Source of the DNA: Escherichia coli
GTDB taxonomy: Bacteria; Pseudomonadota; Gammaproteobacteria; Enterobacterales; Enterobacteriaceae
Strand: one strand, 5' to 3'
Assembly (NCBI RefSeq): GCF_022846255.1
Contig: NZ_AP025682.1
Length of the DNA stretch: 64,000 bases
A model generated the notes under the pieces. That model did not search any database and had not been told where the DNA came from. It worked only from the letters and a program-made list of their open reading frames with translations. Positions 58,766 to 58,885 of this stretch are shown piece by piece (the first letter of the stretch is position 1; each line of letters opens with the position of its first letter). The position numbers and the translations under genes are program-made.

Positions 58766-58779
58766 ATAAGCAAAATTAC

Positions 58780-58858
58780 CTGATGCGCTCCGCTTATCAG
58801 GCCTACAATTTCAGTGATCTACGTAGGCCGGATAAGGTGTTCACGCCGCATCCGGCAT
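58780..58858. repeat. REP/BIME element at the lacA-codA junction
   Basis: GCGCTCCGCTTATCAGGCCTAC ... GTAGGCCGGATAAGGTGTTCACGCCGCATCCGGCA palindromic units. Confidence 0.8.
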
Positions 58859-58885
58859 AAACTACGCTCGCGGTAGCCCAGCCGA

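Follow-up and report, generated by a model that had tools for sequence, protein, structure and literature searches.

A chimeric BIME between lacA and codA in a cyn-less, phylogroup B2-type haplotype of Escherichia coli

The cynR-cynTSX operon is absent from the lac–cod region of the 64-kb stretch of Escherichia coli DNA analysed here (the window, meaning the whole of that stretch), and lacA adjoins codA across a single BIME that is a clean chimera of the lacA-side and codA-side copies found beside cyn in other genomes. Based on the anatomy of this BIME and on the relationships of the flanking genes, it is likely that the B2-type haplotype lost cynR-cynTSX by BIME–BIME recombination, in one event that was subsequently inherited.

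That phylogroup B2 as a whole lacks cyn has already been published, and in this respect the finding is real but ordinary, a rediscovery. According to the available passages of Gonzalez-Alba et al. (2019, BMC Genomics; PMC6896753), ancestral reconstruction indicates that phylogroup B2 lost the cyn operon, and in those of Fang et al. (2018, BMC Syst Biol; PMC5996543) cyanate is among the substrates that cannot be used by B2 genome-scale models. The addition made here consists of the chimeric-BIME scar and the crossover interval within it, which are not described in the passages of PMC6896753 and PMC5996543 accessible in the open-access literature.

Gene content and BIME anatomy of the lacA–codA interval

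For characterization of the locus, a combination of the window ORF list and tblastn searches with K-12 proteins was used. CodB, CodA, LacA, LacY, and LacZ of K-12 all gave matches of 96–100% identity in the window (for LacA, 96.1% over 203 aa at 58154–58762), and prpE was also found on the minus strand beside codB-codA (Table 1). The lacA start at 58154 is that annotated in STEC299 and E2348/69; the mechanical ORF opens further upstream, at 58103. Across the whole 64-kb window, tblastn with K-12 CynR, CynT, and CynS returned zero matches, and the sole match to CynX was an unrelated MFS transporter at 23% identity. At the DNA level, blastn matches between the K-12 cyn interval and the window were limited to REP parts, located at ~15.6, 17.7, 42.9–43.1, 45.05, 58.1, and 61.6 kb.

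A previous sequence-only reading of the window had claimed that the lacA and codA stops lie ~120 bp apart across a REP element, with the cyn genes absent between them. All of this was borne out: the spacer (58766–58885) is exactly 120 bp by sequence and ORF list, it is made up of two oppositely oriented REP units, i.e. a BIME, and the tblastn searches described above found no CynR, CynT, or CynS. The K-12 gene order given by the same reading, with cynR-cynTSX between codA and lacA, agrees with the K-12 record, which runs codB-codA-cynR-cynT-cynS-cynX-lacA-lacY-lacZ-lacI.

The 120 bp could be divided into a 12-nt flank, a 29-nt palindromic unit (PU1), a 16-nt linker, an opposite palindromic unit of 35 nt (PU2), and a 28-nt codA-proximal spacer. 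In the Gilson/Bachellier nomenclature, PU1 is presumably a Z1-type and PU2 a Y-type unit; Z1 and Y units around a linker that holds an IHF site characterize the BIME-1 sub-family. The arrangement is that of a BIME, with two opposite palindromic units separated by the linker in an extragenic position between two convergent stops. An inverted-repeat search detected the inverted-repeat arms of the spacer, and both hairpins were present in the minimum-free-energy folds of both strands (z-scores −2.2 and −3.0). PU2 occurs four times in the 64-kb window when ≤3 mismatches are allowed, versus 0 expected, which together with the REP-only blastn matches gives the element its multi-copy character; PU1 has 1 copy only in the window at the same threshold and recurs in the spacers flanking cyn in other genomes. 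A search of Rfam gave a sub-threshold match only, to the REP-derived RNA family naRNA4 (58826–58883), and a consensus scan of the spacer for terminators and promoters gave none.

Table 1. Features of the lac–cod region of the window
Feature	Position	Strand	Basis or remark
lacI	52495–53586	+	Window ORF list
lacZ	53709–56783	+	Window ORF list; tblastn with K-12 LacZ
lacY	56835–58088	+	Window ORF list; tblastn with K-12 LacY
REP unit in lacY-lacA spacer	58089–58128		Context; counterpart recombined in AR_0374
lacA (galactoside O-acetyltransferase, 203 aa as annotated in relatives)	58154–58765	+	TAA stop at 58763–58765
lacA-proximal 12-nt flank, ATAAGCAAAATT	58766–58777		Identical to the lacA-proximal flank of the L096 lacA-cynX spacer
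First palindromic unit (PU1), (A/G)CCTGATGCGCTCCGCTTATCAGGCCTAC	58778–58806	+	Inverted-repeat arms, spacer alignment, predicted hairpin on both strands
Linker, 16 nt, AATTTCAGTGATCTAC	58807–58822		A at 58807 and A at 58817 are L-type; R copies have G and C
Inferred crossover interval, 13 nt, TCTACGTAGGCCG	58818–58830		Common to L-type and R-type BIMEs
Second palindromic unit (PU2, Y-type REP), GTAGGCCGGATAAGGTGTTCACGCCGCATCCGGCA	58823–58857	+	Multi-copy REP unit; holds the 18 nt absent from L copies
codA-proximal spacer, TAAACTACGCTCGCGGTAGCCCAGCCGA	58858–58885		Has orthologues beside codA in the cynR-codA intervals of K-12, O157, IAI39, and L096
codA stop, TAA	58886–58888	−	Reads TTA on the plus strand
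codA (cytosine deaminase, 427 aa)	58886–60169	−	98.6% to K-12 CodA (tblastn); annotated in STEC299 and E2348/69
codB (cytosine permease)	60159–61418	−	100% identity to K-12 CodB (tblastn); context

Palindromic units of BIMEs are the specific target of the insertion element IS1397 (PMC1525189), and the orthologous Y-type unit was found to be such a target in two genomes. An annotated IS1397 element of 1,432 bp, flanked by a 4-bp target duplication, occupies the loop of this unit in the junction of TUM13754 (cyn-less and B2-type; L004, 7492–9047) and in the cynR-codA BIME of IAI39 (cyn+; L099, 34241–35808). These are independent insertions into orthologous units. SK0189, an ST131-type genome, carries two IS1397 copies inside the 24-kb region corresponding to 40001–64000 of the window. 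REP/BIME copy number also varies in the codB-prpE spacer, where the window has one ~84-bp unit (61570–61652) and the divergent L007 locus, described below, has three to four tandem copies of ~100 bp (8163–8579). A second BIME cluster is found in the window at about 42886–43095.

Comparison of the junction with the BIMEs flanking cyn

Spacers of three kinds were taken from 12 genomes, namely lacA-cynX (L), cynR-codA (R), and, as the junction, lacA-codA (J). K-12, O157, and the L096 lineage, a cyn+ relative considered below, have BIMEs in both L and R in the same orientation, which places cyn between direct repeats. In IAI39 the codA-side BIME is present, the lacA-cynX spacer carrying a different REP type, and in 1070/13, AR_0374, and L092 the R spacer has none. 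The two-BIME arrangement around cyn is common, not universal, among cyn+ genomes, and the BIME state of the immediate B2 ancestor is read from the tree. Across the set, the cynR-codA spacer holds 0, 1, or 2 BIMEs, with lengths of 39 bp (the three genomes with none), 120–132 bp (L096, 120 bp; O157, 132 bp), and 336 bp, respectively. The last of these is the codA-cynR spacer of K-12 (L001, 3956–4291), in which a unit of ~200 bp, made up of the last ~65 bp of the cynR region and the BIME, is tandemly duplicated.

L and R copies are distinguished by fixed or consistent differences. In window numbering, the diagnostic sites are the equivalents of 58790 (C, T, or G in L versus A in R), 58807 (A versus G), and 58817 (A versus C). 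Additionally, 18 nt (the equivalent of 58831–58848) are missing from every L copy examined and present in R of K-12, O157, and IAI39; the R copy of L096 has its own 16-nt deletion, which overlaps this stretch and removes part of it. The B2-type junction, represented by the window, STEC299, E2348/69, and TUM13754 (minus its IS), shows the L state at 3 of 3 left sites, and its left part is continuous into the L flank. From 58831 onwards it is R-type, the 18 nt included, and continuous into the codA-proximal spacer. Within the window, the A residues at 58807 and 58817 set it with all L copies versus all R copies, and the C at 58790 is as in L096. When aligned with L096, the left 68 nt of the window junction show 2 differences to the L copy, and the right 55 nt show 4 differences to the R copy.

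The change from L to R takes place in one clean transition within the 13 nt at 58818–58830, with neither filler DNA nor an IS remnant, leaving one hybrid repeat of the kind that a direct-repeat deletion would produce. Relative to cyn+ genomes, 3,378–3,674 bp of DNA are missing. The junction is the product expected of one unequal L × R exchange, an event that we infer from these alignments. L and R are 81–84% identical over 65–78 nt, and their longest perfect identity, 15–16 nt, is on the short side for an exchange that depends on RecA. Recombination over short homology, or slippage during replication, would therefore be more likely than a classical RecA crossover.

That the perfect identity reaches just 15–16 nt also speaks for a different origin of the scar, in which B2 deleted cyn by another route (illegitimate or IS-mediated) and a BIME later occupied the site or was remodelled there through gene conversion or the proliferation of REPs. 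The region has active elements of the IS1397 and IS621 types, and the varying number of BIMEs in the cynR-codA spacer shows that REP units can be gained or lost. However, the junction BIME runs unbroken into the orthologous lacA- and codA-proximal spacers, and the single clean switch from L to R contains no foreign sequence. Such an origin is accordingly regarded as quite improbable, and BIME–BIME recombination is retained as the preferred route.

REP sequences have been documented at recombination junctions (PMC1525189), and a further example was found at the same locus. AR_0374 (L006, NZ_CP027126.1) and similar genomes are cyn+ and without lacA, with lacY adjoining cynX. In the 78-bp lacY-cynX spacer of AR_0374 (5527–5606), the REP of the lacY-lacA spacer is joined to a lacA-cynX REP of the IAI39 type (L099, 30119–30884) at AATGTCGGATGCG, which the two REPs share, giving a chimera of the lacY-proximal part of the first REP and the distal part of the second. 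The loss of lacA in AR_0374 is an independent REP-to-REP deletion, the second at this locus. PEC1012 and HCM-21C-2, in which the junction query gave no lacA match, are probably lacA-less as well.

Distribution of the junction and direction of the event

To establish how widespread the junction is, a 901-bp query spanning it was searched against 5,426 complete RefSeq E. coli genomes, and in 985 of these it matched uninterrupted, in one piece. Genomes sharing the junction include E2348/69 (O127:H6), O25b:H4-ST131 strains, and the type strain ATCC 11775, all of which belong to phylogroup B2. The K-12 cynR-cynX segment was found in 4,262 of the 5,426 genomes. By sensitive blastn, cynS was found in 4,259, usually in one place each and at most in two, and was not found in the other 1,167 complete genomes. 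The cyn-less junction and the cyn+ state are, then, essentially complementary. Some of the remaining ~180 genomes resemble TUM13754 in having an IS inside the junction; others are probably lac-deleted laboratory strains. A diverged second cyn locus in cyn-less genomes was considered and rejected, every cynS match in the 5,426-genome population being of at least 95% identity.

These counts also bear on assembly. A misassembly had been allowed for by the sequence-only reading itself. Collapse between direct repeats is a known failure mode of assemblers, and cyn might in reality be present, with its flanking BIME repeats merged into one. This possibility was refuted, its probability being close to nil: the identical junction is carried by 985 independent complete genomes, many of them long-read, 1,167 genomes have no cynS anywhere, and the flanks of the junction form a distinct monophyletic haplotype.

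In the 24 kb at 40001–64000, the best matches of the window among the 5,426 complete genomes were ST131-type genomes, at only 98.3% identity, so that the genome of the window is not itself a member of that set; the junction is 99.3% identical to that of the marmot isolate STEC299. None of the Clermont markers (chuA, yjaA, TspE4.C2, and arpA) was located in the window. The window clusters with E2348/69, TUM13754, and STEC299 in trees of codBA, codA, and lacA (96–100% bootstrap), and it has the features by which cyn-less B2 genomes are recognized, namely absence of cynR-cynTSX and adjacency of lacA and codA. It is therefore assigned, from its local haplotype only, to an E. coli of putative phylogroup-B2 type. 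The region is mosaic and recombinant. In a tree of lacY plus lacZ 3′, the window and E2348/69 are separated from STEC299 and TUM13754, whose lacZ 3′ allele is divergent.

The junction structure alone cannot separate a deletion from Campbell-type integration of a BIME-bearing circle, since the two share the same L/R/J geometry. For this reason, outgroups were sought. A CodA search of GTDB-species genomes yielded one Escherichia locus, L007 ('E. coli' SCPM-O-B-8794, NZ_JAATUR010000022.1), among the 80 matches listed, the others being from other genera. L007, a GTDB species representative, is ~92.7% identical to the window and ~92% identical to K-12. It is collinear with the window, and its lacI-lacZYA adjoins codA across a truncated 86-bp BIME (11282–11370) with no cyn. 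By exact LacY look-up, 24 contigs of the L007-like lineage (L101–L110 among them) were collected, and all 24 lack cyn at this site; exact LacA look-up for L007 found nothing. The L007 junction has A, A, and C at the three diagnostic sites, and its second unit is truncated, from which it follows that it is not the product of the same event as the B2 loss. In the L007-like lineage, cyn was either never present or was lost in a separate event. A 9-nt sequence, CACAGGTCA, is found both at the right end of the junction of L007 and in the hairpin that follows cynR; the idea that it might be a remnant of cyn was set aside, as so short a match is indistinguishable from chance.

The second outgroup, the L096 lineage, has flanks that are 93–97% identical to E. 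coli, and all 24 of its contigs carry cyn together with both BIMEs. NJ trees rooted on L007 were built for codBA, codA, lacA, and lacY plus lacZ 3′, each from 0.6–2.5 kb of a recombining region. In these trees, L096 lies outside the clade of cyn-less and cyn+ E. coli with 82–100% bootstrap. The trees of codBA, codA, and lacA each unite the cyn-less genomes in one clade (96–100%); in the lacY plus lacZ 3′ tree these genomes split, as would be expected of recombinant alleles of lacZ. Between L096 and E. coli, cyn DNA is 96.2–96.5% identical, the same depth as the L096 flanks, and among E. coli it is 97.3–98.7% identical. IAI39, of phylogroup F, sister to B2, is cyn+ with a BIME beside codA. The E. 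coli sampling left out phylogroup G, the closest sister of B2, and named Escherichia species were unsampled; CynS homologues were clustered at 90% identity, a level at which Escherichia species are merged.

Because L096 lies outside all E. coli proper, and its cyn is as deep as its flanks, cyn would predate the B2 split. On these comparisons, cyn was most probably at the site before B2 separated, and B2 would then have lost it once. In presence and absence alone, given the cyn-less L007 tip, B2 loss and other two-step histories are equally parsimonious. The contrary history is that a lacA-BIME-codA arrangement was the original Escherichia state, kept in B2 and the L007-like lineage, and that cyn was inserted later into or beside the BIME, for example by a Campbell-type event, and then spread to non-B2 E. 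coli and L096 by homologous recombination. This would account for the uniformly cyn-less site of the L007-like lineage, which is the furthest diverged of the lac+ relatives found, and the junction states of L007 could be ancestral to both L and R. In other enterics, cyn stands in unrelated contexts (as in P0008, a non-Escherichia genome), which makes its position here Escherichia-specific, and a group of genomes typified by L089 has neither lac nor cyn beside codBA.

Set against ancestral absence are the position of the L096 flanks outside B2 and other E. coli together, with cyn diverging in step, and the cyn+ state of IAI39. Moreover, the C at 58790 and the A at 58817 of the B2 junction are L-specific, unlike the states of L007 and the R copies, as is expected if the junction descended from an L copy. 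The available passages of the published reconstruction, which infers B2 loss (PMC6896753), agree with the order of events favoured here. An original lack of cyn in B2 is thus considered unlikely. Ancestral lack and loss had both been offered by the sequence-only reading; the chimeric BIME and the cyn+ L096 outside E. coli sensu stricto favour loss.

Several further observations were made in the genomes collected. In the L096-like lineage (L111 and L112; 884–2633), genes for a metallo-β-lactamase-fold protein and an AraC/DJ-1 'GlxA-family' regulator lie between mhpR and lacI. In TUM13754, all that is left of a GlxA-family regulator is a pseudogene fragment immediately upstream of lacI, and the mhp operon is missing from this position, unlike in the window, which carries mhpR and mhpA. 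The L089-type genomes (L089–L091, L093–L095, L097, and L098; e.g. CP056936.1 and CP042942.1) are 4.5–4.66 Mb in size, have a CodB identical to that of L007, and are possibly another Escherichia species. Their codBA is ~96% identical to that of E. coli, with no prp, lac, or cyn genes nearby; nfrA/nfrB-like genes lie upstream, and WipA-like phosphatase, SopD/pentapeptide effector-like, PerC-like, and intimin/invasin-like genes lie downstream. P0113/L087 (CP178317.1, GCA_047199205.1; labelled 'E. coli', CynS 87% to K-12) was rejected as a diverged relative, being an error-rich assembly with fragmented genes. Nearly every prp-cod-cyn-lac gene is split in this 'complete' assembly, which looks like an uncorrected long-read assembly.

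Proposed history and comparison with known systems

Taken in sequence, the proposed history would begin with an ancestor in which a cyn module of 3.4–3.7 kb lay between direct BIMEs, L between lacA and cynX and R between cynR and codA. Unequal L × R exchange within the 13-nt interval, by short-homology recombination or replication slippage, would have removed everything in between and left the one hybrid 120-bp BIME behind. The deletion is proposed to have happened once and to have been inherited by the whole cyn-less clade. lacA and codA would now converge on a single BIME, with REP hairpins predicted on both transcripts. The resulting cell would be without cyanase, the cyanate-inducible carbonic anhydrase CynT, the CynX transporter, and the CynR regulator. 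As the cyn proteins are absent, no use or detoxification of cyanate via this pathway is predicted, a view based on gene content and published models.

A wider possibility, to which a modest minority weight is given, is that cyn is a BIME-bounded cassette that entered and left Escherichia genomes on more than one occasion, each time by BIME × BIME exchange. The empty site of the L007-like lineage would then be ancestral, entry would have been of Campbell type, and the B2 deletion would be its precise reversal. If this were true, pairs of REP/BIME elements would offer accessory modules the size of an operon a natural 'attachment site' that works reversibly. Under the single-loss history preferred here, the scar is a clean natural example of operon removal from BIME to BIME, inherited by a major lineage of extraintestinal pathogens. 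As a standard published marker of B2, cyn absence also shows to which type of E. coli the window belongs. For recognition of the cyn-less haplotype by PCR or k-mers, the 120-bp junction could be a simple marker, a lacA-to-codA amplicon being ~3.4–3.7 kb shorter than in cyn+ strains.

The state of the window matches the B2 loss in the available passages of PMC6896753 and PMC5996543 in the genes missing (cynR, cynT, cynS, and cynX), in the lineage, and in the inferred direction, namely loss; unlike the present account, those passages give gene presence or absence and predicted growth. In comparison with K-12, the flanking genes are orthologous (96–100% protein identity), and the lacA- and codA-proximal spacers are also orthologous. 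The K-12 locus differs from the window in its 3.36-kb cyn module, in a lacA-side BIME that is 18 nt shorter, and in the tandem duplication of ~200 bp beside codA.

Loss of cadA in Shigella and EIEC is a lineage-specific 'black hole' deletion. The cyn deletion is similar in that a metabolic module of most E. coli is missing from a host-adapted or pathogenic lineage; in contrast to cadA, no adaptive or antivirulence role is claimed for the loss of cyn. For REP elements themselves, Shyamala et al. reportedly described REP-mediated tandem duplications in Salmonella in 1990. REP–REP recombination starts the amplification of F′128, and REPs are found at λ bio junctions, as cited in Tobes & Pareja (2006; PMC1525189). 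As in these F′128, λ bio, and Salmonella cases, short, direct, imperfect palindromic repeats would have served as substrate at the window junction, where the exchange is read from comparative anatomy only, and one hybrid repeat is kept. Those cases are laboratory duplications or amplifications and phage excision, whereas the cyn deletion is fixed in a major natural lineage.
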